From NCBI GenBank assembly GCA_023205875.1, contig CP060755.1, positions 372,001 through 436,000 on the forward strand: DNA of 64,000 bases, read 5' to 3'. The stretch comes from Chloropicon primus. Taxonomy: Eukaryota. Under the pieces are notes generated by a model. That model worked only from the letters and a program-made list of their open reading frames with translations, was not told where the DNA came from and searched no databases. The translations under genes were made by a program, and so were the position numbers. Below are positions 14,296 to 63,727 of the stretch, piece after piece. Each line of letters opens with the position of its first letter. The stretch's first letter is position 1.

Positions 14296-14621
14296 CGGGC
14301 AGGGAGGGCGCTCTCAAACCAGGAATCCGTGGCGTGCTGCCTCCTGGAAGTCGGGAGGGAGAGAAGAAGGGAGAGGAGGGAGGTGATGGTGATGGTGATG
14401 GCGGGGAAGGAGGGGGACGGCGGTGGGAGGTCGAAGGACAATGAATTCACGCTCCTCTCCCTCTTTCCAAAGAACCCTCGCTTGATGGGGTAACCGGGAA
14501 AGAAGGTCATGGATCATCACTGATCAGGCCAAAAGGGCTTCCCTCTCCCAGATCTCCCTGCTCTTGCTCTGCCAGAAGATAAGGTAAGGTAACAGCGGAG
14601 AGAGGAGGTCGAGAGGGAAGA

Positions 14622-15995
14622 ATGGGGAGCAAGTACTTGTGCGCGTCGTGCGGAAGCAGCCACACGGCGATCATCTTGAGCGAGAAGAATGCCGTGTTCA
14701 CGTGGGGACGCGGGGAGGACGGACAGCTCGGTCACGGCGACGCGGAGTCTCAAATCGTGCCGGCGCTCGTGCAGGCCCTGGAGGACAAGGAGTGCGACGA
14801 GGTCGTGTGCGGGGCGGAGTACACGATAGCCGTGTCGCACAAGAGGCAGAAGATTTGGAGTTGGGGCTGGGGAGACTTCGGTCGTCTCGGCCACGGCAAC
14901 CCGACGGACCTCTTCATCCCCAAGCAAGTGTCGAGCCTGTGCGATGTCAAGATAAAGATGGTGGCTTGCGGCGATTCGCACACCATGGTGGTCACGGGCG
15001 ACGGGTCCGTCTTCAGCTTCGGAAGGAACCAGAACGGCCAGCTCGGGCTCGGCAGCAAGATCGACAGCATGCTTCCCACGCAGATAATGGACTTGAAGGA
15101 CCACCAGGTCGAGTCCATCGCGTGTGGCGCGGAGCACACGGTGGCTTGCACGTCCAAGGGAAAGACGTTTGCGTGGGGGTGGGGGCTTTACGGCAACCTC
15201 GGCCTCGGCGACAACGAGGACAGGTAAGGCGGGAGGCCCGCAATCACCCGTAACGGTTGGAGCGCGCGGGGGGGGGCGTGGAGCGAAGTGAACTCCTTTC
15301 TTGGCTTGGGAGGTAAGACTGACTCTTTCGCGTTTTCATTCTTTCGCAGGCTGCACCCCTCCGAGGTCCAGAGCCTGACGGCCTCGAACACCTTCATCCA
15401 GACGGTGGCTTGTGGCTGGAGGCACTCCTGCGCCGTGACCGACAAGGGGGAGCTGTACACCTTCGGCTGGAGCAAGTACGGGCAGCTCGGGCACGGGGAC
15501 AACGAGATCGCGGCCACCCCCAAGAGGGTGGCGGCCCTGGAGGGCCGGACCGTCGTGAACGTGAGCGGCGGCTGGAGGCACACCATGACGTCGGACTCCG
15601 AGGGCAAGGTGTACGCCTGCGGCTGGAACCAGTACGGCCAGGTCGGAAACGGAAACAACGAGGACGTGAACACGATGACGGCCATCAAGGCGCTCCAGGA
15701 CGAGTTCGTCACCTTGGTCAGGTGCGGTTGGAGGCACTCTGTCGCCATCACGAAGTCGGACAAGCTCTACTCCTTCGGAAGAGGCGTGCACGGGCAGCTG
15801 GGGCACCCGCAGAGGAAGGACTTCAGCGTCCCCACCCTGCTCACGGGCCTGGACGGCGGCGTCGGGGCCGGATCGAGGCCGGCGGCCCAGGCCAAGGACG
15901 CCGTCCTGATCTCGGCCGCGGATAGGTACGCCACCGTTCCGGACAACCCGACGCCGGGCCAGGGCGCCGCCAAGAAGCTCAAGACGGATCCGTGA
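14622..15995 (+). CDS. UVR8: UV-B photoreceptor UVR8; exons 14622-15223 and 15350-15995, 415 aa
   Basis: RCC1 repeats with three GWRH[S/T] motifs, WGWGDFGRLGHG, C-terminal RYATVPD (VP motif); GTAAGG...CTGAC...CAG intron. Confidence 0.93.
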
Positions 15996-17059
15996 GCGTA
16001 GTCGAAGGTGGGAGGAAAGAGGAAAGGGGAAAGGGAGGGACATGTAATAATTGTTGTTGAATGGACAATGTTTTCCAGCAGCAAGAAAAAAAAAACCGGA
16101 TTCCAGATCAACACCAATATCGATATCAATATCAATCAGAGGTGTTGTATCTATATCTATTCACACACACAACAACAGCAACCCACACGTGCATGCATGC
16201 ATGCATTGAGAGAGAGAGAGAGAGAGAGAGGGAGAGAAGAGAAGAGCTCCTTGAGGATGTATGTATGTCAATTATTTTCTTGAGGAAAGTCCGTCCGTCC
16301 ACACCACACCTTCCATTGATGGATGGATGGAATGGGATGGATCCAATCCATTCATTCTACCAAGGAGAAGGAAGGAGCAAACTACACAATCCACAATCCA
16401 CAGTCCTTAGTCATCATCCCACCATCGGTCATGACAGCCTCCTCACGCGCCATTGATAGGTCATCGTCCCAGTAAAAATAACGTCTTTAACAGAACCTTA
16501 ACTCTCAGCCTCTCCTTCGGTGTTGCAAAGCAGAGAGGAGCAAAAAAAACGGACGGTCCCTTCGCGCTCGCGCTGTCGGGGTCCAAAGTAATCTCCAGGA
16601 AGAAGAGAAACAAAGGGCGTACGAACGGTGAGGCCCGCTAGATTCACCTCCCTCCCTGTTACAGGACCTCCAAACACTCGGGGAGCTCGTGTTCGTTTTC
16701 TCGGTGAAGTAATAAGGTAATCACTATCGAGTCCTCAGCTCAGCTCACGTGAACGCTGTTACGTGTTCGCTCGTGTTGCTCCGGGCCGGGTCTGGTCTGG
16801 TCTTGAAGTTCTAACCTCTTCCCTCGTACTTCGTTACTTCTTTCCTCCTTCCTCTTCCTCTTCATCTCTCTTGTTCTCCCACCAGTGGTCGTGGTCGTGG
16901 TTGTGGGTGTTGCCAACTTCGACTTCGACTTGGCCCCAAGCCCGAAGGACGAAGGGGCAGACGAAGTGCCAGCGCACGAGTGGCCGAAGAATTTTGGCGG
17001 CACGACTTGGGAGGTGGTTTCTGCGCCTTTCTTGGTTGGGGAAGGGCGGGCCTCGTGCC

Positions 17060-17222
17060 ATGAGCTCGGGTAGCAGAAACAAGATGGCAAAAGTTCGGAA
17101 AAGGGTGAACAGGTTCGACGAGTTCGAGAAGGACTTGCTGGAGCGGAAGTACGTGCATCGACTGGGGCAGTTCGAGCCCTCGGACGGCGGGGGAAACCCG
17201 TCGCCAGAGACCCGACTCAAAA

Positions 17223-17263
<41 letters not shown>

Positions 17264-18628
17264 TTTTGCAACTTGTCTTGTGGCCTTTTTGACGAAACGC
17301 ACTACACAACACCCAACCCCGGCAACCGCAGGTTCAAGGCGAACAAGACCCCCAGCTCAGAGGCCTGCCAGGAGATAGCGAACCTGATCAACGACAACAG
17401 GAAGAGCAAGAACACGACGGAAAAGAACGGAGCCATGTTCGTGCTGACGGGGAAGCAGATAAAGTTCTGGTTCGACCACAGGCGAAGGATACAGAACCAC
17501 GGGACGTACAAGCCCCTGAAGCCGGGCTCGAGGAGCTCCAAGAAAGCCTCGACGCCAAAGAGGTCGACCAAGACCGTGAAGGCGGAGCAGAAGAGCGGCG
17601 CCAAGCAGGTGGCGGGGAACCTCAAGGAGGAGTCGAAGCGCCAGCAGCCCGCCAAGGGCCAGCAAGCCTCTGCGAGGCAGCCTGCCGCGGAAGACCAGGG
17701 TGTCGCGAGCACCAGCGGCTCCAAGTCAACAACAGGCCCGGAGATGACGAGCTTGCCGTCCTGGATGCACTCCTTCCAGCTCCTGCCCTTGATGTCCACG
17801 ATGAAGTACGCGACGTATCCCCCGGGGACGGTGATCATCAAGAACGGGGAGCTCTCGGACGACCTGTATTTCCTTCTCAAGGGTTCTGTGAAGGTGATCG
17901 ACGTGAACAACAACGAGGTCGCGGAGCTCAAGGAGGGAAGCTTCTTCGGGGAGATGGGAGTCATTGACAAGGGCCCGAGGACTGCCACCGTGGTTGCGGA
18001 GGACCACTGCCACGCCTTCATCATGTCGGGAGAAGTGGCCAGGGACATGCTGGAGTGCGAGCCGGTGGTGAGCAAGGACGTGGTGGACCAAGCGACCAGC
18101 CGGCTTCTTGACTTGCTCAAGGCCTACGAGACGTCGCCAGCGAGCAAGTTGGTCGGCGCCAACATCCTGAAGTTCAACGTGTACAAGAAGGGGCAAATCA
18201 TCCTCAAAGAGGGCGAGTACACGGATGACTTTTACTTTTTGAGCAAGGGGAGCGTGGTGGTGACGAAGCAAGGGAACTACATCAGCAAGCTCAACGAAGG
18301 AACGTTCTTCGGGGAGATGGCAGCCTTGTGCAGTGGGGCGAGGACGACCACCGTGACTTCGGCCGAGGACTGCGAGGTCTTCTTGCTCCCGGGCGAGATC
18401 TTGAGGATGCTCTCCAAGGACGACAAGGACCTGAAGAATGGCATTGGGGAGACGCTGAGGAACGTCGTTTTCGCAAGGGCGTATGACACAATGATGGCGC
18501 TGACTGATAACTCGATCAGGCCAACGACCGCGGATATCGCTGTGTCAACGATGACCATGAGTGCTGACCTCAAGCTGGCCCTGTTCCAGCTCCTCAAATG
18601 TATACATAACGTTACTGTGAACATATGA
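17060..18628 (+). CDS. Homeodomain plus two cyclic-nucleotide-binding domains; exons 17060-17148 and 17332-18628, about 461 aa
   Basis: Spliced RKRVNRFDEFEKDLLERKFKANKTP...LTGKQIKFWFDHRRR; two cassettes FFGEMGVIDKGPRTATV and FFGEMAALCSGARTTTV. Confidence 0.85.
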
Positions 18629-19360: not shown

Positions 19361-19964
19361 ATGGCTTCTCAAGGGGCACAGCTTCAGAACTACAACAACG
19401 AACTCGTCAAATGTAAGTTTTTTGTGTGGGACTGCCGTTCATCCTGGCGCTGCCTCGGCTCGGGAGAGAGACGGGGCGGGGAGCGCTCGAATTGCCTTCC
19501 TTCTTTGCAGGTGCTGCAGCGTCTTTGCGCCCCGCTCTGCTTTCTCTTGCCAGGTGCTTTGCTGCCCACAGACCAAGCAACGGTTTGGTGGCTTCCCCCA
19601 AAAAAGGTTTCAGTTAGTTTTATTTTTGCTGACTCCCTCGCTTTTGCTTTTGTCTTGAAACCTTGGCTTGGGCTGCTCAGGCATCGAGGATCTTCGCGAG
19701 AAGAGGGAGGAGATCAATAGGACTCTGGCAAGTGACGAGCAAGAGAAGGCCAAGATTCAGAATGACCTTGCCATCTTGACGAGGAGGCTGGCCCACCTTA
19801 ACGAGAAGCTCTCCAGGCAAATTGCTTCCAGGAACGAGTACGATAGGACGATTCAGGAGACGGAGGCTGCGTATAGCAAGATCCTTGAATCTTCACAGAC
19901 TTTGCTTACGGTCCTCAAGCGTGAAACTGTAAACATAGCAAAGAAGAGACAGTCGTCATCGTGA
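19361..19964 (+). CDS. DIP13: SSNA1/NA14/DIP13 microtubule and basal-body coiled-coil protein; exons 19361-19412 and 19681-19964, 111 aa
   Basis: [25 protein letters not shown]...[29 protein letters not shown]...CTGAC...CAG intron. Confidence 0.95.
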
Positions 19965-20068: not shown

Positions 20069-22342
20069 TCACTGCATCGTGATCATGTTAAGTAGCTGAC
20101 TCGTTTGAAGAGGCGAAAGCGCGTGGATGCTGTGGGCACGCAACACGCTCAAGCTCTCGCTCTCCTTCAGGCTTCCTATTTCTTCCAACAGAGCTTGACC
20201 CTCCCCAGACCCCATGGACAGGACCTCGCTGGCTTCGACCATCAGCTTGAAATAGGCTCTGGGCCGCCTCGAGAATTCCTCAAAAGCGCTCACGAGGAGT
20301 GGCACTACTTTCGCAAGAACGGCCGCCGTGCCGTGGTTATGCTGAACCCCCAGTGCGACCTTGTTGAAGAGCTGGGTGTTGATACACGCGGCAGCGGACG
20401 TCCAAATCACTCGGTACACGTCTGACGTCACTTTAGGCCTCACCTCTCTCAGCTGGACCACAAGGTCATCAAAGATCATCAGAAAGTCGCCGAGAATCGT
20501 GTCCTCGTTGATCTGGGACTTGCCTTCCTGCAAGAATTTCAACTGTTTCCTGAAGTTGCTCACCCCGCCAGACTCAAACTCCTTCGTCAAAAGGGAGACC
20601 AACTTGCGAGTCCAATTTTGTATGTGGCTCACAAACCCCTTGGCGTTCTCTTTGAAGCACTCGACACCACTTGTGTGTCGATCGTAAATGCATTGGTCCA
20701 GCACAACTCCTTCCACGTACGCGGCAGAGGCCAGGCAGCTCGCTGTCGCTTGGATCGCAGAGTGCCTGCTGGTATCGCCATAAGGGTCATAAGAATCCAC
20801 TCTCCAAGACAATTTCTTGACCAAAACCTGAAGAAGAGGACAGCACAAGGAGTCCAGGAACTCTGCCCTCTTTGCATCAGGGAAGGACCTCGAAAAATTG
20901 ATGCACTCCGTCAAAAGGCCACACAACTGCTCCACGCATAGAGGAACTCCGTGGCCTTCAAGGTCAGCATCAGGGGAATCCAAGTCACGGAGACTAGAGT
21001 CCTCGGAAAGTGGCTCAGTGTCCCACGCGCCGGACTGCTTGAATAAGCCTTCAGCCTTGTCCACAAGAAAATCTCTTTCGGCTCCTATCCAATCATAAAA
21101 ATACTCCTCTCTGAGCAGCACGTTGATCAGGATGCCAAAGTCCCAAGAGCAAAGTGGAGAAAAGGGGTTTTGGCTGTAGAAGGACTCTCGCGAGGATGGG
21201 TTCAAAAGCTCCGCAAACTTCAAGTCGAACTCCCGAACCTTGTTTGCCAAGTGAAGCAGCAACAGACTGAAGTCCTGAGCTTGCGACGGCTCTTCGCCAG
21301 AGAAAGCCTCTCCAATTTCCAAGTACTGAGGAAGGATTTGCTGCAGTGTGCTCGTCACGCCCAAGGCAAGCTCTTGCGGGATCGAGTAGATGTCCTCGAG
21401 GCCTGTCCCCTCTATTGCTCTCGACAGCGTTTTCCCCTCACTCTGCAGGACGGTCGCCGCATGCAAACCGTATCTTAGCAGCCACTCAGGTTTATCCAGG
21501 CGGAAGGTGCCACCTTGCTGTCCGAAATGAAAGCAGATTTTTCTCTTGAACTCGTCCAAGAGCGGCTCGGTCATCCACAAGCTCTGCTTCGCCACAAATG
21601 CCCCTGCATTCTTCGCCGTGCCTTCCTCGGACAAGTCCATATGAGATTTTTGGAGGGCACACAAATGCCGCAAGGAGGTGCAAAGCAGCGTAAACGTCGA
21701 AGGGTCCCTCGCTTGCATTGATTTGAGGACGCCCCTGGCCTCTCCCTCGCCCTGGGGGGCGCTACCTGGTGACAAGTGTATCCGAGGTGGCCAGGCCTCG
21801 CACTTGGTTGACAGGACTCGTCGAAGGAACTTCTCGAGCTCTCTCCTTATTTGCTGGCACATGGACAGCAGATACGACCGCGTCGCCCCCGAGAATGGAA
21901 AGAGTTCGCCGCCATCGGATCGCCCCATCTTCTTCTTCCCTGTCCTATTCTCGCTGAAACTGGTGCAGATGACTTGCATCACTTCGATGGTAGACCTGAA
22001 GCCCTCGAGCTTCAGGTGCAGGTCACTCGTCACACCCTGGAGCTCAGCGAGCGACCTCGCCAAATCATCCTTCAGACGAATCACGTCACCCTGAAAGCGG
22101 AGGTCGCTCTCAGCCTGGTGAAGGAGCACCGAGTCTCCCAGCTTTGACACAAACGAGTCGTAGCTGTACCCACTCAACCCCTCACCAGCGTCTTCGGCCT
22201 CCCGGTTCGCCGTCCCAGGCTCCGCCCCCTTCACCCGACACTGTCGCTCGAACTCTTCCGCGATCTTCCTTGCGAGGACCTCCCTCCTCTCCCTCAGACC
22301 CACCAGCTTTCCCTCCTCCGCCGCCAGGTTGCCGTCCTTCAT
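20069..22342 (-). CDS. RINT1/TIP20/MAG2-family ER tethering protein
   Basis: FHF-x6-RLDKPEW signature; N-terminal coiled coil; 757 aa. Confidence 0.8.
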   Translation of the reverse strand: MKDGNLAAEEGKLVGLRERREVLARKIAEEFERQCRVKGAEPGTANREAEDAGEGLSGYSYDSFVSKLGDSVLLHQAESDLRFQGDVIRLKDDLARSLAELQGVTSDLHLKLEGFRSTIEVMQVICTSFSENRTGKKKMGRSDGGELFPFSGATRSYLLSMCQQIRRELEKFLRRVLSTKCEAWPPRIHLSPGSAPQGEGEARGVLKSMQARDPSTFTLLCTSLRHLCALQKSHMDLSEEGTAKNAGAFVAKQSLWMTEPLLDEFKRKICFHFGQQGGTFRLDKPEWLLRYGLHAATVLQSEGKTLSRAIEGTGLEDIYSIPQELALGVTSTLQQILPQYLEIGEAFSGEEPSQAQDFSLLLLHLANKVREFDLKFAELLNPSSRESFYSQNPFSPLCSWDFGILINVLLREEYFYDWIGAERDFLVDKAEGLFKQSGAWDTEPLSEDSSLRDLDSPDADLEGHGVPLCVEQLCGLLTECINFSRSFPDAKRAEFLDSLCCPLLQVLVKKLSWRVDSYDPYGDTSRHSAIQATASCLASAAYVEGVVLDQCIYDRHTSGVECFKENAKGFVSHIQNWTRKLVSLLTKEFESGGVSNFRKQLKFLQEGKSQINEDTILGDFLMIFDDLVVQLREVRPKVTSDVYRVIWTSAAACINTQLFNKVALGVQHNHGTAAVLAKVVPLLVSAFEEFSRRPRAYFKLMVEASEVLSMGSGEGQALLEEIGSLKESESLSVLRAHSIHALSPLQTSQLLNMITMQ

Positions 22343-22733
22343 CTCTCTGTCTCTCTCTTCTATCGAACGACGACAGAGAACTTCAAATCATCCAAACGAA
22401 ATATCATACGAAAGCCCTCGAGATGATGCTTCCTTTCGTGACACCTCCCTCCCCTTCCCTTTCCCCTCCCGCCCTTCACTCCTTGGCGAAACCGTGCCCC
22501 CCTCTCTCAGCCTCCCCCTGTCTGGATCGTCTGCAATATGGCGAAGAGAAGCAGCAGAGGGAGGAAAGCGCGCGAACGAGACCGAGACGAAGGGAGAGGG
22601 AGAGGGAGAGGGACGATGGCGAGGTGGTCTAGGACAAGGATTACCTGTGATCGGTAAAGGTGGTGACGGTTGACGGAGCTCGAGGAGGAGGAAGGCGGGC
22701 GAAGGGAGGTGTGTGGTGGCGTGGAGGAGGAAG

Positions 22734-38682: not shown

Positions 38683-39441
38683 CTAGCTATGGATGAATGG
38701 GATGGCATCCGTGGTCAGGATGTTGTTCACAAAAGGGTTGGCGAGGTGGTCTCCCCAGCACTCGATAGGACCCTTCCCTTGGACGTTGTACTGGAGCCAG
38801 AAGCCAATGAAGGAGAACATGGCGAGCCTGCCGTTCTTGATCTCCTTGAGCTTGAGCTCCTCCAAGTCCTGGGAGGACCTCGTGGACCATCCGAACAAGT
38901 CGAAGATTCCCCCCGGGTATCCAGACTTGTTGTCGCTGGGCAGCTCGTACTTCTGGAAGATGGGGTCTTGGTTCACGCTCCCCTCCTTCTGCATGTCCTG
39001 GTACCTTCTGATCTCGACCCAGTGCATCAAGAAAAGCTGGATGACGAAGTAGACCTTGGAGTCGTAATCGTACTGGAAGGTCGCGGCGTCCACGAAGTTG
39101 ACGCCGGCGCCCGGCCACTGCACGCCGAGCTTGGCCGCGGCCTCGGGCGCCAGGACCCCGAGGCACCCCAGCATGGCGAAGCGGGCGTGCAAGAGCTCCG
39201 CCTGCGCGAACCACTTGAGCTGCTCCGGCTCCGTCCCGAGCTGGAGAGGATCGAACCCGTAGTCACCCGGGAGGCTCCCGTCCAAGTACTTTGGCTTCGC
39301 CGCTCCAGGGTACCACGAAGGCAAGGTCTTTCCGGCCTTGGCCACCACCCTGCGACGCTGGATCAGCGTCGTCGTCGTCGAGGCTCCCTTCCTCAACGCT
39401 CCGGCGTTCACCTTCGTCATCGATGACGCGCTCGCTTGCAT
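38683..39441 (-). CDS. LHCA: PSI light-harvesting chlorophyll a/b protein (Lhca2/4-like)
   Basis: YLDGSLPGDYGFDPL, AELLHARFAM, EIRRYQD...GSVNQDPIF, YPGG, KEIKNGRLAM. Confidence 0.95.
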   Translation of the reverse strand: MQASASSMTKVNAGALRKGASTTTTLIQRRRVVAKAGKTLPSWYPGAAKPKYLDGSLPGDYGFDPLQLGTEPEQLKWFAQAELLHARFAMLGCLGVLAPEAAAKLGVQWPGAGVNFVDAATFQYDYDSKVYFVIQLFLMHWVEIRRYQDMQKEGSVNQDPIFQKYELPSDNKSGYPGGIFDLFGWSTRSSQDLEELKLKEIKNGRLAMFSFIGFWLQYNVQGKGPIECWGDHLANPFVNNILTTDAIPFIHS

Positions 39442-39954
39442 TCTCTCTCAACTCTCTCTCAACTCTCTCTCTCACTCTCAGCGTCAGCGCTCTCACAACT
39501 CTCGAGTCTGCCTCGCCTCTCTGTCACTGGATCAACGCGCGATCAGCTCCCTCTCCTCTGCTAACGCTTCGCGCGCTCATTGGAGGAAAAGAATCTCTTA
39601 TCCTCAATCGTCTTTTTAGGTGTCACGATGGTGTCACGATGGTTGCACGATTCTGCACCAACCGATCGAGGAGGGGAGGAAGGGAAGGGGTTGACCCCTG
39701 AAACAGGAGGGAAGTTCAGCTGGCAACTCTTTCTTCTTCTCTCTTCTTCTCTCTTCTTCTCTCTTCTTCTCTCTTCTCCTTCTTCTTGTTGTTTGTTTGG
39801 AGAACTTGCTTGGAACTTCACTTTGTTGAGAATGGCCTTTAGCATTCACCACCACCACGGTCCATACCCATACATCGGGGAGGGACTCTGGGTCTTGTGC
39901 GGCGTCTTGGTCGAACAACAAGACGACTTCTACATCCCTGGGTCCCCCTCCCAG

Positions 39955-39986: not shown

Positions 39987-40494
39987 CTCCTCCCTCCTTC
40001 TCCTCCCTCCTTCTCCTTCTCCTTGTTTAGTTTCCCGCATCTTGCGAAAACACGAAAAGAAGTTGGAATCGATTTAGTAGTGCGTCTCAACGCGCTTTTG
40101 TCCTCTTCTCTCGTCCTCCTCCTCTCCTCTCTCTCCCTCTCTCTCCCTCTCTCTCTCTCTCTCTTGTCGCCGGCTCTTGTCCTCTCTCTTGTCCTGGTAC
40201 CAAATAACCTAAAAAGACCAAGACGAGAACCTTTGGCCTTGTTGTGGTTTTGCCGGCGGACGCTTGGGGCTTTGGGCCAAGAAAGGCGGGACGGAAAGGA
40301 GGTCAAGACTCACTTGAGACGTGCGCCCCCTCGAAAGACCTTGGAAAGACCTAAGACCTTTGGGTCAAACACACACACACACAAGAAAGACAGTCTCGTT
40401 TGTCTTTTGCTGCTTGGGACTTGTTTGGTACCGTACGAAGGCGACGTGCTCCTGGTGCTTGTTTGGTGCTTGTTAGTTAGGGTGAGAAAGAAGG

Positions 40495-41595
40495 ATGGAG
40501 GACCTTGAGGCCCGAAAGCAGAGGCTTGCCGAGTTGACGGGAGGCGACAAGGCTTCCCCAAGCGGCGGAAGGTCCAAGGCGGACCTGGCGCGCAGAAGGA
40601 GGCGTCTCTCCCAGACCGCCGGCCTTCAGACCACGCAGAGCCGAGAGAAGGAGGTTAGCGTTGCAACTAGCGGAACGGGCGGCTCCCTTCCCACGGACAG
40701 GACCTACAATTTGGGCAAGGTGACGATATGCTACTCGTGTTCCACGCACCCCGGAAACGACCCTGGTGGCATGCAGAAGACCAACCAGGACTCTTGGCTC
40801 GTGCGCGAGAATTTCGGAGAGAAAAATATGATACTTATGGGAGTTTACGACGGTCACGGCTACGAAGGGGAGAAGATTAGCCGCACTGTGGTGAGCAAGC
40901 TACCTGGATTCATGACCGAATCGAAGGAGTTCATCACCGGTAACTTGAGGGATTGCTTTAAGTACGCCTTGCCCGCGTGCAACAAGTCCCTAAAAAACTC
41001 GGGCGTCATAGAGTGCTCCCTCAGTGGCAGCACAGCGGTTCAGGCCCTCCTCTACGGGGACAAGTCCGTCTTGTGCGCCAACGTGGGAGACAGTCGCGCC
41101 ATTGTCGGGGTCGTGGAGTCGAACGGCAAGACCTCCGTAGTGGAGCTGTCTCACGACCACAAGCCCACCAACCCCGAGGAGCAGGAGAGGATCGAGTCCA
41201 GCGGAGGAAGGGTCGAGCCATACATGTACGAGGGCGAAGCCATCGGACCACCAAGGGTCTGGCTGCGTGACGAGGACACCCCTGGCTTGTGCATGTCGAG
41301 ATCCATCGGGGACAGCATCGCTGCTTCTGTTGGAGTCATCGCCGACCCAGACCTCGTGGAGCACGAGTTTAGCCCACAGGACAAGTACCTAGTGTTCATG
41401 AGTGACGGCATCTTCGAGTTCATCTCGAACGAGGAGGTCATCGAGTTTATTCACAAGCATGCCCAGCAGGGCTTGAGCCCAAGGGAGGTCGGAAAGAGAC
41501 TCGTCAAGGAAGCGAGGAAGAAATGGCAGGAGGAAGAGGAGGACGTTATAGATGACTGCACCGCGCTCGTTGCCTACCTCACGGTGGAGGCGTGA
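40495..41595 (+). CDS. Protein phosphatase 2C (PPM family)
   Basis: NQD, YDGHG, SGSTA, ANVGDSRA, DHKP, MSRSIGD, SDG, DDCT. Confidence 0.95.
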   Translation: MEDLEARKQRLAELTGGDKASPSGGRSKADLARRRRRLSQTAGLQTTQSREKEVSVATSGTGGSLPTDRTYNLGKVTICYSCSTHPGNDPGGMQKTNQDSWLVRENFGEKNMILMGVYDGHGYEGEKISRTVVSKLPGFMTESKEFITGNLRDCFKYALPACNKSLKNSGVIECSLSGSTAVQALLYGDKSVLCANVGDSRAIVGVVESNGKTSVVELSHDHKPTNPEEQERIESSGGRVEPYMYEGEAIGPPRVWLRDEDTPGLCMSRSIGDSIAASVGVIADPDLVEHEFSPQDKYLVFMSDGIFEFISNEEVIEFIHKHAQQGLSPREVGKRLVKEARKKWQEEEEDVIDDCTALVAYLTVEA

Positions 41596-42587: not shown

Positions 42588-43181
42588 CCTGAACTCCCTC
42601 CCTCTCTCTCCCTCTCTCTCCCTCTCTCCCTCTCTCGACGCAAGGACGCCCTACCCGATCGCCAAAACGGTCAACCGCGATATCACTGGAAAGCCCTGGA
42701 GGTCTAGTTTCGTCCAATTACCCTCCCCTTCCCTAAAAACTCCCTCGACGCACGAAAACAAGTCCGCAAACCTCACGAGGTTCCTCACAGTCACCCCCCC
42801 CCTTCGCCGTCAAGCACCAGGAAACACTGTTTTTTCATTTTCAGTGTGAATTTTTGTGCACTCATTCGACGTCCCTGCGTCTTATCCTTCGCTCAGCCTC
42901 TCGTTTTGGCCAAACGGTTTCAAGGGACAGGAGGCGAGGAAGAGGTGAGTACTGGGAGGGCGAGTGGGGTGCGAGGAGGGAGAGGAAAACGAAGAAGGTG
43001 TCAATCGATGGATGCGTCGCATCGTTGTCTTTCGAATGACCCCTCGCGCCAAGGTTTTGAGACCCTGGAGATGGATTCGGTCCCTGTGGAGGAGTGAGCT
43101 GACATTTGTGTGTGTGTGTCGCCCAAGTTTCTCTCTCTCTCGGTTGTGAGGCGAAGGAAGGAGAGGAGCAATCGGGGCGCG

Positions 43182-44837
43182 ATGGTGACTGCTGGAGTGG
43201 CGAGGAGCGTGGCGGGCCAGGGGAGCGGCGTCGTTGCTGGCGGGTTCGGCTTCAGTGGGCCACAGGCCGCGGCGAGGAGGACACACGCTCAAGCGAGGAG
43301 GAGCGGGCCCAGGACCAGGACGACCTTGGGGCTGGCGCTCGGGGCTCCCAGGAGGAGCGCCGGGGGGATCGCGAGCAGGAGGCTGGGGAAGACGGATGCG
43401 TCGGCAGAGAGGGGGGAGGCGCAAAAGTGCCAAGCGATCTCGAAAGTCTTGATCGCGAACCGTGGAGAGATCGCGGTGAGAGTCATAAGGGCGTGCAAGG
43501 AGCTTGGCTTGAAGACCGTGGCGGTTTACTCCGTCGCGGACGAGACGTCGCTCCACGTCCAGCTGGCCGACGAGGCGGTGTGCATCGGACCTGCGCCCAG
43601 CCAGGAGTCGTACCTGAACGTGCCGAACATTCTCGCCGCGGCCATCAGCCACGGGGCTGACGCCATCCACCCAGGTTACGGCTTTCTCTCGGAGAACGCC
43701 TCCTTCGTGAGCATCTGCAGGGACCACGGCCTCAAGTTCATCGGCCCGGACCCGGAGTCCATCACGATGATGGGGGACAAATCCACCGCGAGGGACACGA
43801 TGAAGAGCGCCGGAGTGCCGACCGTGCCCGGCAGCGAAGGTCTCATCGAGTCGGACGAGGACGCGCTCAAGTGCGCCGAAGAGATTGGGTTCCCCCTGAT
43901 GATCAAGGCCACGGCCGGAGGCGGAGGAAGGGGAATGAGGCTCGCGAAGAACATGGAGGAGTTTCTGCCGCTGATGAAGCAGGCCCAGGGCGAGGCCAAG
44001 GCCGCTTTTGGCAACGGAGCCGTGTACATCGAGAGGTACGTGCAAAACCCCCGCCACATAGAGTTCCAGGTGCTGTGTGACGAGCACGGCAACTGCATTC
44101 ACCTCGGGGAGAGGGACTGCAGCATACAGAGAAGGAACCAGAAGCTGGTGGAGGAGGCCCCGAGCCCGGTCTTGACGCCAGAGGTGAGGCAGGCAATGGG
44201 AGACGCGGCGGTGAACGCGGCAAAGTCCATCGGGTACAAGGGGGTCGGGACCATCGAGTTCTTGTGGGAGGAAAAGGGTTTCTACTTCATGGAGATGAAC
44301 ACGAGGATCCAAGTCGAGCACCCCGTGACGGAGATGATCACCGGGTTTGATCTCATCCAGGAGCAGATCAAGGTCGCCATGGGAGAGAAGTTGAAGGTCA
44401 CCCAGGAGGAGGTGACTCTGAGCGGGCACGCGATAGAGTGCCGCATAAACGCGGAGGACGCCTTCCAGAACTTCAGGCCTGGGCCTGGAAGGATCAACGC
44501 TTACCTGGCACCCGGAGGTCCCAACACCAGGATGGACTCTCACATCTATCCGGGGTACCTTGTGCCTCCGAACTATGACTCGCTGCTGGGCAAGCTCATC
44601 GTGTGGGCGCCAGACAGGGAGCAGGCAATCGTGAGGATGGACAGGGCCTTGGGCGACATGGTGATCAGCGGCGTGCCTACCACCATCGACTACCACAAGC
44701 TGATCTTGGCCCACCGAGAGTTCAAGGCCGGCAACGTGGACACTGGATTCATCCCCAAATACCAGGACGAGCTCTCCATTCCCCCTGAGGCTGCCCAAAA
44801 GGCGGTGGTCGCGTACCCTGCAAAGTCCCAAAAATAA
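43182..44837 (+). CDS. accC: Biotin carboxylase subunit of the heteromeric plastid acetyl-CoA carboxylase
   Basis: [53 protein letters not shown]; transit peptide; stand-alone domain. Confidence 0.96.
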
Positions 44838-45058
44838 AAACAAACTTTTGTCACACCACATGTAACACACAGACACACACACACAGACACACACACCTTT
44901 TTCTTTCTCCTTCATCCGAGTCATCGAGTCCTCCTCCTCCTCCCCTTCATCTTTCCTCCTGTCCAAAAGGAAGCCGAGGCCCTGACAGATGCTCCTCTGG
45001 AGGGGAGCAGCAGGAGCCCAGAGAGAGAGAGAGAGGCTCTTGGCAGTGTCACTGTGCC

Positions 45059-46787
45059 ATGGAGAGGGTGCGAGGGCGGTCGGGGCTTGCGGTGAGGGGG
45101 GACACGCTGGTGGTGCCTCCGTTTGAAGCAGGCTGGCTGAAGCTTGGGAGGCGGTCGTGCTGCCTGCACTTCGAGGCGAAAAGCACGAACGACATCACCT
45201 TGATACTTGACACGTCTTCGAGTCCTGGCGGGAAGCGCTTCGGAGTGCAGAGGCCGAACTCGAGCACCTACACGGTGATCATAGGAAGCCACGGTAACTC
45301 CAGGTTGATCATAGAACGTAATGCGAAGATTGTCGTGGCCACGAGCCACGTGCACAAGCAGGGGGAGGATTTCAGCCAGTACTGGGTCGATTACAACGCC
45401 GGGAAGATAACTGTGGGGAGCGGGAGGAGGGGGTCGGGGTGCCTCGTCTCGTGGCAGGACGAGACGCCGCACGACATCGAAAGCATCGGCCTCAGTTCGT
45501 GGGACAAGCACGTCTTGTACAGGAACGTGTCGCTCAGTAATCCAGTTGACGACGACTCGTTCAGTTCCAAGGCCAGAAGAAGAAGCTCGGCTTCGGGGGC
45601 GGAACTCATGCCTGGCGAGGTGGCGTCCTTGCAGGCGCTGAGCTGCGAGAAGCTTGCAGACTCGCTCAGGGTGAGCAACTGCCTCAGAACCCTGGCGGTC
45701 GCCGAAGACTTCAACAAGAAAGCTCTCGTGAACGTGGTCCTGGAGTTCGTGTCCATGAACTTTGTGGGTGTCGTCCAGCGGCACGAAGAGATATTCTCCC
45801 TCTCCGAGCGAGACCTGGCAGACATTCTGGATAGGGACGTCCTTAACAGCATTTCAGAGGTAAGTTTGACCTGCAAGACCCTCCTCGGGCTAGAAGCGGC
45901 GCGACTGACTGAACGGTGTTTTTGTCTTTGCATAGATATGGATTTTTGACGTCCTGATGCTTTGGTGGGGCAAGCAAGCTGCTTCGAGGGACCCCAAGAC
46001 TCTGCAGAACCTCTTCCAGTTCGTGCGGTTCCCTTTGATGGACGCGAAGGATCTTGGGCGAATCGTGGAGATGGACATCTTCAAACAGAGCGCGTGCTTG
46101 CGCTCGTTGATCGAGGAAGCCAGAGAGAGTCACAGCCATGGGGACTCGACGAGCAAAAAGGGAAGCTTTCGGATCATCTCGGGGAGGGACATTGAGATAG
46201 TAGACGACGGCCACATGGCGAGAAGGCGCCTGCAGCCTCGGAGGTCTCCCCACCTCAAAGAGCTCCTTTACACGCATGACGGGGACGAGGGAGGGGTCTG
46301 CTTCTTCCTTGGAACGCTCCAAGGAGTTCCAGTCGCCTTGACCAACTCGGTCTCGCTAAGCGCCTCTAGCCCCCACTCGAGGTTCTCGAACCCCAAAGCC
46401 GTGCTGTCGAGGGTCTCTCTCCCCACGTCCTATTTTGAGCCCCAGTACCACCCGGAGACTGGGCGCAAGGAGTCGTGGTGGGAAATCAACCTGCACAGGA
46501 ACTTGAGCTGCAACCACTACAGCCTGAGGCACGACGCCTCGCCCGATGGATTCCTGAGGACCTGGGAGCTCAGAGGCAGCGCGGATGGGAAGACTTGGAC
46601 GACTCTTAGGACACACACCAACGACACGACGATCCAGAAGGCGTATCAGTACGCCAGCTGGCCGATTTTTGCGGACGAAGACTTCAAGATCTTTAGAATC
46701 GTCCTCACCGGTCCAAACGCATCGAAGATGAATCCTTACAGGCTCTACATCAGCTGGTTCGAGCTGTACGGCTACCTCGAAGTGTAG
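45059..46787 (+). CDS. Farnesoic-acid-OMT-like + BACK + F5/8-type-C domain protein; exons 45059-45859 and 45936-46787
   Basis: YTVIIGSHGNSRLIIE, IGLSSWDKHVLYRN, VRFPLM, CNHYSLRHD...WELRGSADGKTW; phase-0 intron. Confidence 0.8.
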
Positions 46788-48987: not shown

Positions 48988-49818
48988 CGTCTCCACGCCT
49001 CTCGTCTCTCGTTCTCTCCCACCAAGGGCGTGCTTTCTCGCTCCTGCGCTTTCTCACTCCTCACCACCCAATCAGGCGAGGAGATCCCAATCGGATAAAA
49101 TCCTTCCTTCCCCCATCATTAACGGGCGAGTTTAAGAAGACGAAGAAGGGGAACCAGCCAGCAACGCAACGCAAAGCAAGGTCCTTGGCGAGGAAGACGA
49201 CTACCAGGCAGAGGAAGGACAAAGTAAGTGACGGGAACTTTTTCCTTGGCGGTACCCACAGCAAGATGGTGTCACGCAAGTTGGGGGAGGAAGAGGTCAA
49301 GATTCTCTCCTCAAGATTCCTACGGAAAAAAGAAGACTCAGAAGACTCACTTGGGGAGGGACACAAGACTCCTGGAGAGGATCAACCAGGCGCATCGCCC
49401 ATCACCACTGCACGACCTCAAGGGACCCGCCAAGGCAAGACCTTGCTTTGGTTATCCCCCCTCCTCATGTTTCCTTTCCGTTAGGAACAGGGGGACGAGA
49501 AAACTTTTTCCATTTTCGTAAAGTGAACGACGACGACTTTTGAATACCGAGGAGGACAGGTGAGGGCAGACCATTCGGTTGCACCGGTGGAGAGACGGGC
49601 GAACGGACGGACGAACGTAACGAAGGAGGACACCGAGTTCCTTCCTTCTCCTTTTCCTTCCTTCCTCCCTTACTGCGCTTTACACCTTTGCCTTAGGCGC
49701 GCATTGCGTTTTACCTCTCATCCAGTGGAGGGAGGGAGAACAACAAACGGGAGGTGTTGGACAGGAGCGTCTCTGTCTCTCGCTCCCAGCGACGGGGAGG
49801 TCGGCAGCAATCGTCACC

Positions 49819-51234
49819 ATGTGCGAAAGAGGACACAGAGGAGGAGGGGACGAGGGTTCAGAGGAGGAGAACAGGAGGTGCAGCGGCGTCCTGGAAGGGC
49901 GTGAGGCTTCGACGACAACGACGACGACATCCTCGAGCGGGAAGAAGAGGTTGTACTACAAGTTTGGGGACATCAAGGACGGTCAGGTCTGCGCGCCGGT
50001 GATCGTGCGTCGAGTGCTCGAGGAGGAGGGGTGGAGGGAAGCGGGGGAGGACGTGGCGTGGAACCTTTTCTGGAAGTCCGGGCGCTTCACCGTTGGGGAG
50101 TACGACAGGGCCCGGTCCTTCGACCAGCGTCTGAACCACTTTGCCAAGAGCGGCCAGATATGCACCAAGGATTCCCTGGTGAGGATCATGAGGAGGAACA
50201 AGGCGACTCACGGGCGGGTGTACGACTTCGTTCCGGAGACTTACCTCCTGCCGAACGAGTACAACAAGTTCATCAAGTCTTACGGCGAGCAGAGGGACCA
50301 GGACACGCTTTGGATTTGTAAGCCGACGGACCTGAGCAGGGGTCAGAAAATATTCGTGATGAAGGACATCAGGGAGCTCGTGTACGACTGCTCCAGCGTG
50401 ATACAGAGGTACATCCACAACCCCCTGCTCGTGGGCGGCTACAAGTTCGACCTCAGGATCTACGTTCTGGTGAGCTCCATGCACCCCCTCAAGATTCACC
50501 TGTTCCAGGACGGCCTGTGCAGGTTCGGCACGGTGCCTTACTCCAAGGGCAACTACTCCGATATTTGGGCCCACCTCACCAACTTCTCCATCAACAAGAA
50601 TAGTCCGACGTACGATTGGGACAAGGATACGATCGGCGTCGCCAACAAGTGGACCCTGAGGCGGCTGACCGAGTACCTCAGGTCGAGGGGCGTGCCGATG
50701 GAGGCAGTCATGCTCAAGATCAAAGCCCTCGTGATCCTATCCCTCGTTTCCCTTCCGGGAATCGTGCCAAAAACGAGCAGCGGCACCTGCTTCGAGCTCT
50801 TTGGTTTTGACGTCATCCTCAGCTCCGACTTCAAGCCCTGGCTTTTGGAGGTGAACACGAGCCCGGCCCTCGGGATCGATTGCTTTGAGGACGAAGACGT
50901 GAAGGAGCCACTGATCAGGGATCTTCTGTCCGCGGTTCAATTCGGCAAGCTGAGCGACAGGAAGAGGGAGAGGAAGCGCCCTTGGTCGAGGAGGTCGGGC
51001 ACCAGGGTGCTAACGGGCAAGACCAGCGATCAGAACGAGAACGGGGAGGGAACCTTCCAGATGAATCACGCGGGCCAATACGAGCAGATCTTCCCCTTCA
51101 ACCAGAAGACCTTCCTCCTGTCCAACCAGCTCGACTGCGCCAAGGATCCGGTCCCCATTGTCAAGCAGGTCATCGCCGAGATCAAAACCTGGAAGCGAGA
51201 AACCATGAAAGAAATCCGTAACCAGAAAGTGTAA
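49819..51234 (+). CDS. Tubulin polyglutamylase, TTLL2-like
   Basis: LNHF, WICKPTDLSRG, QRYIHNPLL, KFDLRIYVLV, HLTNFSINK, FELFGFD, LLEVNTSP. Confidence 0.9.
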   Translation: MCERGHRGGGDEGSEEENRRCSGVLEGREASTTTTTTSSSGKKRLYYKFGDIKDGQVCAPVIVRRVLEEEGWREAGEDVAWNLFWKSGRFTVGEYDRARSFDQRLNHFAKSGQICTKDSLVRIMRRNKATHGRVYDFVPETYLLPNEYNKFIKSYGEQRDQDTLWICKPTDLSRGQKIFVMKDIRELVYDCSSVIQRYIHNPLLVGGYKFDLRIYVLVSSMHPLKIHLFQDGLCRFGTVPYSKGNYSDIWAHLTNFSINKNSPTYDWDKDTIGVANKWTLRRLTEYLRSRGVPMEAVMLKIKALVILSLVSLPGIVPKTSSGTCFELFGFDVILSSDFKPWLLEVNTSPALGIDCFEDEDVKEPLIRDLLSAVQFGKLSDRKRERKRPWSRRSGTRVLTGKTSDQNENGEGTFQMNHAGQYEQIFPFNQKTFLLSNQLDCAKDPVPIVKQVIAEIKTWKRETMKEIRNQKV

Positions 51235-52465: not shown

Positions 52466-55209
52466 CTAATTTACTTCTATACTGTTCTTCAGCTCCTGAG
52501 CCACTTCGATCTCGTTCTGCAGCGCCGCAGCCTCATCATAGTTTTCCTCGCTGGACGCGGCTTCCATTGCTTGGTTGAGCATGTCTATCGTGATCGAGAT
52601 GTGCTTATTTTGCAGGACTCTTCCCTCCTGCTCCGCAGCAGAGAGTTCCCCTTCAAGCTTCTCCACAACCTCCTCCATCTCCTCGGCCTTCTTCCTTGCG
52701 TCCTCCACGCTGCCCTGCAGGTCCGAGAGAGAAGACTCCGCCTGGATCTTCTCGTCGGTCAGGGCCTTCGCCTCGGACGAGAACTTTGCTGCGTCCTTGA
52801 AGTTCTTCTTGGCCACCGCATTCTTTTTCTCCTCTTCGAGCTTTGGTAGCATCTCCTCCGCGTTTTTGATCACAGATTCGGCCTCTCCGATCGCCAAGAC
52901 CATTTGTTCAAGCTCAGCCTTGGAGCGCGACAGCCCCTCCTTCTTCTGATCCACCTCGGACTTCAAGGCATCAATCTTCTCATTCGCAGCCTTTTCCTCC
53001 AGCCGGAGCTCTGCGAGCGTCTGCCGAAGGGCATCAGTCTTCTTCGCGTTCTCAATGTCATCCTTCATCTGGGATTCAGTTGCCTTCGAGGACTCACAGG
53101 CCGCCTGAGAGTCTTCAATCAGCTGCTGTTTCCGTGAGGATTCCTTGGTAATCTTCTCCTTGATCACGTCTTGCCCCGCCTTGAGCTGGTCTTGGAGGGC
53201 CTGGAACTTCTCTCCCTCCTCTTCGATGTCCTTTCTCTCCGAGTTGAGCTTATCTTGCTGCTTTGCGAACTTTGCTTCCACTTTTTGGATCTTCCCATCA
53301 ATCTCGTCAATCTCCCCTTGAACCTCGGCCATTTCCTCCTCCTTCTTCCTCAGCGTTTCCCTTATTGCCTCCAATTCCTCCTCGAGCTTGGATTTCTCCT
53401 CCAGGTGCTTCTCCTTCTGCTCCACGAATTCGGTCGTCTTTTCCTTGATCTTGTGCTGGACTTCGCCTTCTCTTTCTTCGAGGACGCGTCTAAGGGCGTT
53501 CAGCCTGGACATGTCATCCTCGAGGATCTCAGCCATGTTTGCCTCGTGCTCCGCGTTCTCCTTTTCCAGCTCAGCGATGCTCTCGTCGATGCTCCCGGCT
53601 CTTGACTCCAAAGCCTCCCCCAATTTCTTCAAGGCACCCGCGTACTTCAACTTCACCTCACTCTTTGATTCCAGGATAGAAGCAAGCGTTGCCGAAATGT
53701 CTTCGCACTCCTCCTGAGCCTTGTACCACTCGTTGATCGCCTTGGTGTAACTTTCCTTTGCTTCATCGATGGACGAATTCAGCTCGTCTGCTTTTTCGAA
53801 CTCCTCGAGCTCCACGGCTTTCATTTGCTCCTCTTCGAGAACCTCGCTCTTCTTCTTGGCTTGCGCAATATCGTTCGCAGCACCAATTCTCTTGTCTCTC
53901 GCTGACTTCTCCTGCTGCAGTATTTGACTATTTTGCAGCTCCAGCTTTATGAAGTTCGCGCTGAGGACTTTCTCCAACTTGGCCGCTGACTCCGCATACG
54001 TCTCATCGTCCCCAAAAGCAATGTCCCCAAAATCAAGAGAGAAAGCTGCTGCACCATCCTGCTCCCCAATTCTCTCAGCAGCGTCAGGAACTGAGGCAAT
54101 TGGCTCGGCGGGGGCCTCGTCTTCCGCAGCCAGGTCATCAAGAGACAGCAAGGGTGCGCCGCCCTTGCTCCCTTCCTCCTCCACCGATTCCTCCTCGTCC
54201 TGAGGTGAATCGGCGTCGCCGTCCTGCTCTTCGCCGCCTTCTTCCTCGTCGCCACTGGGCCCCGCACCAAGGGTGGGCGAGACGCTCTCTGCAGGCTGAG
54301 TCGCTCCAGCGTCTTCGGTCATCAAGACGGGTTCCCCTAAAATTTCGTCCGCGCCGTCCTCTTCCGCGGCGGCGACAACGTCCACGGGGTCAGCCTGGAC
54401 TGCAGGACTCTCCATGACGAATTCGTCCGACAAAGGAAGCCTCTGGGAGGATTCAGTGGAGTTGTCTGAGACTGCTGGAGCTGGGGAGGCCACCAGATTG
54501 GTTTGGCTCTTTTCCTTCCTGGCATACCCAACTCTCAAGTTTTTCTTCCTTCTCCTTCCTCCGCCCCCAGGCTGCTCATTGGACTCGGAGGCCCCGGGTG
54601 CGGGAGACAGCTGTGCCAGACTCTCCATAGGGGAAGGGACAGGGGCAGGGACAGGAACAGGGGCGCCGGCAGGGGAGGGAGCCAGAACTGAATCTGCTGG
54701 TGGCTCGGCAGACATGGTCAGACCTGCAAAGAGTCCGCCTCCACCTGCGTCGCTCCCGACCTGCATGCCATCGAAGAGGCCTCCCTCTCCGCCCCCTCCC
54801 AGGTCCAGCGCAGGGGATGAGGCTTCTCCTGCGCCCTTGTTGCCCGCCTCCCCGCCTCCCCCCATGAGGGAGTTCATGACGGTCTCAATTTCCTCATTCA
54901 CGACGGCTTCGAACACAGAAAGCAAAGGAAGCAAACGAAGGTCAGACGCAGGGTGGCGAAAGTTTCGCGCCGAATTCACTTACCGAGCTGCGAACTCCAC
55001 AAGCTCTGCTCGTCCTTCCCCTTGAGCCTGTTCACGAGGGTTTCCAGCTCCTTGGCCAACCTGCGGGCCTCGTTCACTTGTGGAAAGCTCGACTCCGTCC
55101 TCGCTGCCTGAAGGCTCTCTTCAATCTTACGAAGGATGTCATGGGCATCCTTCGACGGAGTGCTGGCACTCTCCTTGGACTGAGACTTGCGACTGAGGCG
55201 GCCAAACAT
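52466..55209 (-). CDS. Long acidic coiled-coil protein with UVR (UvrB/C)-like motifs; exons 55209-54984 and 54906-52466
   Basis: AVELEEFEKADEL, AVAKKNFKDAA, ASSEENYDEAAALQNEI; GTAAGT...CTGAC...AAG intron. Confidence 0.8.
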
Positions 55210-57958: not shown

Positions 57959-58317
57959 CACGAAACCGACAACACCCTCCTTGCTTTCCCCCCTCCACTC
58001 CCTGAGGCAAACACCAACGACGACCGTGAAACCCGCACGCCGGTCGGGACGGGCGAGTCCGACGAGGCGACGACAAAGACTCTCCCTCCCCCTCTCCCTC
58101 TCCCTCTTCCTCTCCCTCTCTCTCGTCGCACAGGACACGACGATCCGATCGGACGATCGACCGCACCACCACGCTCGCTTGCAAAACGACCGGACCTTGA
58201 GGCCATTGGCGATTCTTCCCGCCTTTGAATTTGAGGTTCAGTTTTTCGAATGTAACGCACGCTTGAGCGTTACATTAGAGGAAGAGAGCGGGGCGGAGAG
58301 CGGAGAAGGGAGATTGG

Positions 58318-62798: not shown

Positions 62799-63727
62799 AT
62801 GCAGTGTTTGAGAGTGAAGTCCACCACCACCTCCAGGGTGGGACAAGCGGCGGCGTCCACCCGTAGGACGACCCAAGTTGTGAGGGCCCAGAGGACGAAC
62901 CAGGAAAACAAGGTGAGTGATGCGAGGCGAGGCCGTGGCGTGTGGAGAGGGAGGAGGAAGGGGAGGCTTCACGCGGACCCGTCGTCGTGATGGTCTCTCC
63001 CTCCCCCCTCTCTCTTTCTCGGGGGTGGCAAGTGTTCGGGGGACTGACTCTTCCCTCTTCCCTTCCCTCTTCTCTTCTGTTTCTGCTTGCTCGTCGTGCT
63101 TGTGTTTTCCCATGGCCTGGCCAGCCCCACCAGAACGAATGGGTGACCAAGGGGGCGAAGACCCTCGCCGCCGTGGCCCTCGCCGCGACGATTAGCGTTG
63201 CCAATGTCGAGGAGGCCCAGGCCAAGAAGGACATCTCGGGCTTGACGCCCTGCGCCAAATCCAAGCCTTACGCCAAGAGGCAGAAGCAGGAGATCAAGGC
63301 GCTGGAGAAGAGGCTCAAGAAGTACGAGGAGGGAAGCGCCGGCGAGGCGGCCATCAAGGACAGTATCAAAAAGACCAAGAAGCGCTTCAAGATGTACGGA
63401 GACACCGGCGTGCTCTGCGGCAAGGACGGGTACCCTCACCTCATCGCGGACCCCGGTTTCGCCTTGCAGTACGGCCACACGGGAGAGATCCTGGTGCCAA
63501 CCTTCGGGTTCGTCTACATCGCGGGCTTGATCGGGTACGCTGGAAGGACCTACCTCAACTCCCTCAAGGGGGACGCCAAGCCGCAGACCGGAGAGATCAT
63601 CATCGACGTCCCAAAGGCTTTGGACATGTTCTTGCAGGCCACGCTCTGGCCCGTCAAGACCTACACCGAGCTCAGGAACAACACGCTCTTGGCCGCCAAG
63701 GAGGACGTGACCGTCTCTCCAAGGTAA
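62799..63727 (+). CDS. PSAF: Photosystem I subunit F; exons 62799-62912 and 63125 (or 63134)-63727
   Basis: Bipartite transit peptide ending AQA; DISGLTPC, LCGKDGYPHLI, YIAGLIGYAGR, EIIIDVP, TVSPR. Confidence 0.96.

Follow-up and report, generated by a model that had tools for sequence, protein, structure and literature searches.

Eukaryotic cells couple cyclic nucleotides (cNMPs) to transcription by way of kinases, exchange factors, and channels. Bacterial CRP/CAP regulators combine a cyclic-nucleotide-binding (CNB) domain and a DNA reader of the helix-turn-helix type in one covalent chain, and the classification of Kannan et al., in its accessible text, gives DNA-binding CNB fusions for prokaryotes only (PMC2246266). 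A 2026 algal review asserts a link from cNMPs to gene expression and, in the part available, names no direct receptor for it (PMC13436692). The gene described here lies on the forward strand of a 64,000-nt stretch (the window) from Chloropicon primus, a chlorophyte of the class Chloropicophyceae; Chloropicon is a tiny marine green alga and an abundant oceanic picoalga. It encodes a homeodomain followed by two CNB domains, an architecture that is real, conserved, and apparently undescribed. The initial annotation knew of no such architecture in green plants, and no description of a homeodomain–CNB fusion was found in the openly accessible literature searched, which consisted largely of titles and abstract openings.

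The protein itself is visible in the databases and has been left uninterpreted: it is named "cyclic nucleotide-binding domain-containing protein" at NCBI (QDZ18723.1), and its database entry already lists precomputed Pfam matches to Homeodomain and cNMP domains. In the survey of Joo et al. (2018), cNMP domains are unmentioned in the main text and four supplements, in which the sequence cells hold ∼400 characters, and the entries Pycno_01462 and Pycno_06062 have blank Class and Domains cells in Table S2 (PMC6219170). The main texts of two Chloropicon genome papers contain neither the term "cyclic nucleotide" nor a discussion of homeobox genes (PMC6731263, PMC12301720), and a further paper, in the text available, mentions TALE factors only (PMC13213038).

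The coding sequence begins with exon 1 (17060..17148). Besides the start codon, this exon encodes the basic arm at the N-terminus (RKRVNRF) and the greater part of homeodomain helix 1. The coding intron (17149..17331, 183 nt, GTACGT...CAG) interrupts homeodomain codon 19 in phase 2, and exon 2 (17332..18628) ends with the stop codon. The intron is in frame and free of stops; it contains ACTGAC (17222) and a CT repeat and closes with CAG (17331), where the first AG after ACTGAC lies. Its presence, proposed in the initial annotation, was borne out by transcript contigs joining 17148 to 17332 (GT..AG) in six of eight public runs from three studies (X1, X3, X4; X2, X5, X6). The short side of the joint is only 20 letters in X6; X3–X5 are recorded as RNA, and X1, X2, and X6 are presumed RNA. 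The intron was unbridged in X8 and X9, which do not cover both flanks, and depth was zero in bins fully within it in four of four runs (X1, X3, X4, and one more). In a relative at the metagenomic locus L001 (56% identical), an intron occupies the same codon and phase and has a frame-breaking length of 184 nt, so that the in-frame read-through in C. primus is incidental.

The initial annotation had overlooked a second intron, in the 5′-UTR (16717..16885, 169 nt, GTAATC...CAG), the joint of which was found in three of four runs (contigs from X2, X9, and X5, with a short side of 20 letters in X5). It follows a 5′ non-coding exon (16542..16716; the X2 contig joins 16542–16714 to 16884), and the transcript start may lie further upstream. 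The 349-nt 5′ leader contains no ATG, and stops occur in frame upstream. The spliced coding sequence yields 461 residues identical to QDZ18723.1 (P0002 in the family set), and the locus is a real, spliced, and expressed gene of Chloropicon primus. Environmental contigs show 19 differences in the coding sequence, of which 17 are synonymous; an in-frame 6-base deletion at 17074, in the N-terminal tail, was seen in one environmental contig of run X4 at a depth below 5.

Pfam analysis of the 461-residue protein returned Homeodomain and two cNMP_binding matches and no other domain. The homeodomain covers residues 12–88 (17093..17506, intron-interrupted). The Homeodomain family (PF00046) scored 29.8 bits over residues 14–81 of the spliced protein against a cut-off of 22.9, and 20.4 bits in the unspliced frame, under the cut-off; the gain is due to removal of the intron. 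As whole-protein fold searches were filled by the CNB domains, the homeodomain was folded and searched alone. AF2 predicted three helices (pLDDT 80) with a long insertion between helices 2 and 3, and the VIA matches ranked 1–33 were all homeodomains by title. The best was HMBOX1/HOT1 on DNA (4j19; Z 9.1, rmsd 3.4, 75 aligned), with others within 1 Z unit, among them HNF1A on DNA (8pi7; Z 8.6, rmsd 3.1, 71 aligned). Foldseek also placed 4j19 at the top, at an E-value of only 0.047; the best continuous sequence matches were 2cuf and 4j19 (E 0.002–0.004), and the Atlas features for the homeodomain alone scored 0.84, which was taken as a lead only.

The residues from which a full homeodomain pattern had been proposed (F8, L16-E17, F20, P26, I34-A35, W48-F49, and R52-R53) are all present in C. 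primus. That description agrees with the Pfam score and the predicted fold; it omitted V5, D50, H51, and an insertion of 17 residues between helices 2 and 3. The insertion ranges from 15 to 22 residues across ten aligned members of the family, and its variable part (residues 54–68; 17402..17446) has a mean pairwise identity of 0.24. The three-residue insertion of TALE proteins between helices 1 and 2 is absent, the spacing from F20 to P26 being canonical. In HNF1 and HMBOX1, as in the C. primus protein, helix 2 is extended and helix 3 is preceded by a long loop; however, HMBOX1 has N51 in place of H51, and no HNF-1_N or POU-like Pfam match was obtained in 17 members, and the resemblance is probably convergent.

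The recognition helix (17450..17500) reads W48, F49, D50, H51, R52, R53, and R54, with the H51 codon at 17477–17479. W48, F49, R53, and R54 are invariant (the first three in 17 of 17 members each), and position 50 is Asp in all 17. Position 51 is His in 15 of the 17, including C. primus, and Asn in two deep members; position 5 is Val in all 15 members compared, none having R5, and position 7 is Arg in the same number. Asn51 makes paired hydrogen bonds to adenine, and Arg5 contacts the minor groove (PMC11832328, in the text available). Since both of these classic base contacts are absent in C. primus, binding to canonical TAAT is unlikely, and DNA binding by the homeodomain appears less certain than the initial annotation implied. 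Homeodomains reading W-F-D-N occur in five other prasinophyte rows of Table S2, as far as that table displays them (Joo et al., 2018; PMC6219170). Given these and the two deep members with N51, a single codon step probably separates H51 from a state able to read DNA; H51 is inferred to derive from N51, with a specificity that would be altered rather than lost.

Conservation within the homeodomain is concentrated in the recognition helix, the N-terminal arm, and the tail after helix 3 (mean pairwise identities of 0.77, 0.78, and 0.79), with helices 1 and 2 at 0.51 and 0.49. This pattern is the one expected under selection on a DNA-facing surface, although the conserved surface of helix 3 might just as well serve to bind protein. 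The tail (residues 85–95; 17495..17527) is family-specific, with T88, Y89, and P91 invariant, and may contact DNA or act as a motif for docking within the molecule.

The two CNB domains, A (17747..18133; cassette 17945–17992) and B (18155..18505; cassette 18308–18355), matched cNMP_binding (PF00027) in two stretches with 130.9 bits. AF2 predicted two CNB barrels with long C-helices at residues 274–297 and 395–421, the first carrying R287 (18101–18103), and in structure domain A came closest to the CNBD of the SthK channel (Z 19.2, rmsd 2.8, 127 aligned). The intact phosphate-binding cassettes reported in the initial annotation were recovered throughout the family: the cassette Gly, Glu, and Arg are present in 17 of 17 members in domain A and 16 of 16 in domain B, with mean pairwise cassette identities of 0.84 and 0.81. 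Judged by these residues, both domains look functional.

A Thr follows the cassette Arg in 16 of 17 A domains and in all 16 B domains, as in PKG. In PKA regulatory subunits, the rule is an Ala at this position. PKA-R and PKG also share the tandem layout and the canonical cassettes; however, the C. primus protein has a homeodomain and, in Pfam, no docking/dimerization domain of the PKA-R type, and it differs from PKG in ending without a kinase domain (the stop codon lies at 18628, and none of the 17 members has a kinase match in Pfam). The cGMP selector of PKG CNB-B, which we take to be the Arg nine residues before the cassette Gly (β5), has no equivalent in either domain, the position being A227 in A and S348 in B, and dual cAMP/cGMP specificity is therefore as likely as cGMP selectivity. 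The Thr had been put forward as favoring cGMP, and this argument proved weaker than stated: PKG I CNB-A, with the same Thr, prefers cGMP just ∼2-fold, and the Thr permits syn-cGMP (PMC3080414, in the part available). The cassette Thr may thus be taken to permit cGMP and does not prove selectivity.

The tandem arrangement had likewise been compared to PKA-R and PKG, and the layout is indeed shared, but the pair does not group with the PKA-R/PKG-like matches. Domains A and B are 40% identical to each other, and for 32 of 33 family domains the best match in the opposite domain beats the best of 848 outside domains. In a tree of 107 columns, built from 11 of the 17 members and the best 70 of the 848 non-family domains, with four family fragments dropped, A and B form one branch (support 97/94), and no supported sister group was found for that branch among these 70. 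Among the sequences sampled, the pair is a family-specific internal duplication rather than a captured PKA-R or PKG cassette; its ancestor may have come by bacterial transfer or from an earlier eukaryote. LR_CC, the eukaryotic class of tandem CNB domains with F-box/LRR, has a similar cassette consensus in the available text of Kannan et al. (2007; PMC2246266), and a fungal F-box/LRR member (P0042) was among the family-search matches; its output, however, is ubiquitin ligation rather than DNA binding, and it is not sister to the Chloropicon family in the tree.

Over 103 aligned columns, 31% of positions are identical between domain A and E. coli CRP, and G71, E72, and R82 are matched. The C-helix Arg is in register, R287 aligning gap-free to CRP R123, and is found in all 17 members in domain A only; R123 is described, in the text available, as an allosteric residue, mutation of which cuts CRP activity (PMC4526232). 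The differences from CRP/CAP are that the DNA-reading module is here a eukaryotic homeodomain, is N-terminal, stands behind a 72-residue disordered linker, and is joined to two CNB domains. No HTH_Crp Pfam match was obtained in the 17 members, and the NCBIfam CRP model scored 81.1 bits against a cut-off of 266. These comparisons suggest a CRP-like logic that would have been built independently, outside the CRP family.

The linker (residues 97–168; 17531..17746) is basic in its first half and poorly conserved (identity 0.28), and residues 94–169 had a pLDDT below 50 in the full-length AF2 model, which had a pTM of 0.42 and left the arrangement between the modules undefined. Residues 1–96 contain 23 Lys/Arg against 10 Asp/Glu, and domain A contains 11 against 19. 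The C-terminal tail (18506..18625) is conserved (identity 0.61), and its profile matches family members only. It includes a predicted amphipathic helix at residues 441–453 (L-F-Q-L-L), modeled at low confidence, which is a candidate partner or oligomer interface. Prediction of a homodimer of residues 165–461 with four cAMP, run without an alignment and without controls, scored 0.21 against a mark of 0.32 and weighs neither for nor against a dimer formed through the C-helix.

The architecture recurs in a conserved family of ∼18 clusters, with identities to the C. primus protein from 78% down to 37%. The family search gave 17 proteins at E ≤8e-47 among 434 matches, followed by a gap to 1e-26. 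Of the 17 members aligned, all match cNMP_binding and 16 match Homeodomain (E ≤0.01). With a profile of the homeodomain only, all 18 matches carried PF00027; this search, which covered 7,995 scored candidates without recovering any protein like Pycno_06062, is thus insensitive. Members were found in C. primus, C. roscoffensis, and C. mariensis, and a EukProt entry labeled Picochlorum sp. RCC944 falls inside the C. mariensis cluster. The deep branch comprises P0015, P0016, P0017, and P0359, and P0016 has a 30-residue insertion at the A–B junction. The displayed and aligned members of the P0017/P0018 cluster (328–333 aa) all break off at one shared position in the early part of domain B, which probably reflects an intron or a truncated gene call and possibly a real form with one CNB domain. 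The full-length profile gave 74,435 matches, mostly multi-CNB proteins, among 1.84 billion representatives; in the best 150 of these, only P0005 and P0017 hit the homeodomain profile, and no other lineage with both domains appeared. A metagenome scan found one family locus, L001, among the 80 retained of 546. On these searches the family looks lineage-restricted, although its range may be wider and distant homeodomain–CNB fusions may exist.

As far as Table S2 displays the sequences, Pycno_01462 appears by eye to be a family member when set against the C. roscoffensis cluster, and Pycno_06062 has a V-N-R-F/W-F-D-H homeodomain with a long insertion like that of C. primus (Joo et al., 2018; PMC6219170). 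In the latter, however, a Gln/Pro-rich region follows, and there is no cNMP motif in the ∼400 residues displayed. Pycno_06062 is likely a paralogue and could represent a pre-fusion state.

While the gene structure, the spliced mRNA, the domain order, and the conservation are observed, and the homeodomain and CNB folds are predicted, what the protein does can be proposed with only slightly better than even confidence: it would be a nuclear transcription regulator with an atypical homeodomain, switched directly by cGMP and/or cAMP with no kinase between. In this proposal, cGMP from guanylyl cyclases, or cAMP, would very probably bind both cassettes. Ligand would then, with good likelihood, close the hinge and C-helices and thereby change the activity; such closure on ligand is established for CNB domains in general. 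It is reasonably likely, with somewhat less assurance, that the homeodomain uses helix 3 and the basic arm to bind DNA, in view of D50 and H51 probably at a site other than TAAT. With a disordered linker of 72 residues between the modules, docking would be expected rather than rigid coupling of the CRP type. The most likely route would accordingly be one of two: ligand either detaches the basic homeodomain, together with its conserved tail, from acidic domain A or makes the conserved amphipathic helix at the C-terminus accessible to a partner.

The genomic context favors cGMP as the ligand, and more strongly than the initial annotation could take into account. The C. primus genome paper reports 30 guanylyl cyclases and, in the text available, links them to gene regulation (PMC6731263), and C. 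roscoffensis strains have guanylyl cyclase expansions of their own (PMC12301720, likewise in the available text). A PKG and a cyclic-nucleotide-gated channel subunit are also annotated in C. primus, so that the cyclases need not act through the homeodomain–CNB protein. A wider reading, held more tentatively and at somewhat less than even confidence, is that the C. primus protein founds a eukaryotic class of direct cGMP-binding transcription factors, as a single-chain and independently evolved counterpart of CRP whose His51/Asp50 homeodomain would read a new DNA code, and that it is one direct nuclear output of the 30 guanylyl cyclases.

Against the regulator proposed here stand the missing N51 and R5 and an acidic D50 that would face the DNA position. 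The same features (H51 in 15 of 17, D50 in 17 of 17, and V5 in 15 of 15 members) are what would be expected of a cNMP-sensing adaptor, in which the homeodomain binds proteins, or chromatin non-specifically, and does not read a DNA sequence. HOPX and SAWADEE-type homeodomains are the precedent for such a role, and both kinds occur among the structural neighbors, HOP at Z 6.8 in VIA and a SAWADEE-homolog cluster at TM 0.64 in the Atlas search. SAWADEE-homeodomain (SHH) proteins differ in their second domain, as no SAWADEE Pfam match was found in the 17 members. The retention of R52–R54, W48, F49, and the basic arm, the presence of N51 in two members of the same architecture, and DNA-bound homeodomains as the top folds weigh against the adaptor, which is unlikely on balance while being the most probable of the alternatives. 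It is distinctly less probable that the protein does regulate by binding DNA while its CNB domains recognize a different ligand or form a constitutive scaffold. This would agree with the missing β5 Arg in both domains and with the cAMP-independent CRP-family proteins or trypanosome PKA-R among the fold matches (6flo, 6hyq), DdrI being, in the source text available, a further such case; however, the Gly-Glu...Arg of the cassette, which grips the cyclic phosphate and ribose, is invariant in A and B, and non-cNMP ligands go with altered cassettes in the accessible part of Kannan et al. (2007; PMC2246266).

PKA-R and PKG were the top whole-protein PDB matches, owing to the tandem CNB domains, which could point to a kinase inhibitor like the PKA regulatory subunit, tethered to chromatin by the homeodomain. 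Such a role is very improbable: Pfam detected neither a docking/dimerization nor a kinase domain, the linker, where an inhibitor site would be expected, is unconserved, the A–B junction accommodates the 30-residue insertion of P0016, the tandem match has an rmsd of 12–18 Å, and A and B form their own clade. A gene-prediction artefact or chance motif match could be argued from the read-through of the unspliced frame and its sub-threshold Homeodomain score. It has a negligible probability and was refuted by the transcript joints in six of eight runs and by the conserved intron position at L001 with its frame-breaking length; a family of full-length proteins also exists.

If the proposed regulation by ligand holds, a homeodomain factor that binds cGMP or cAMP directly would be a convergent eukaryotic CRP. 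As a small protein that could be purified, it would serve for testing how cNMP signals lead to gene expression in the green lineage. The still unexplained expansion of guanylyl cyclases in Chloropicon would gain a concrete candidate effector, base reading by His51/Asp50 could be put to the test, and synthetic switches that respond to cGMP might be built on the protein as a scaffold.

No cyclase or further cNMP gene was found among the 36 long ORFs scanned in the window. The upstream neighbor (14583–15995, forward strand) is an orthologue of the UV-B photoreceptor UVR8 (best PDB matches UVR8, E 5e-95), with three G-W-R-H motifs, a C-terminal VP motif, and an intron spliced in three of four runs; its adjacency is probably chance. 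The downstream neighbor (19361–19964, forward strand) is similar to SSNA1/DIP13 (9dsm, E 6e-4), a protein of microtubules and basal bodies, and no contig covered its coding part in four runs (X2, X5, X6, X9). Chloropicon is coccoid and is not known to be flagellate, which makes such a gene notable there. A functional link to either neighbor found no support and was rejected; the transcripts are separate. Three long ORFs on the reverse strand (42882–45194, 52466–54979, and 55421–58237; 770, 837, and 938 aa) had no Pfam match at E 1e-5, and some of these may be antisense frames of real genes. The window also contains genes for RINT1/TIP1 (20069–22387, reverse), a chlorophyll a/b-binding protein (38683–39447, reverse), PP2C (40486–41595, forward), a tubulin-tyrosine-ligase-like protein (49621–51234, forward), and PsaF (62921–63727, forward).
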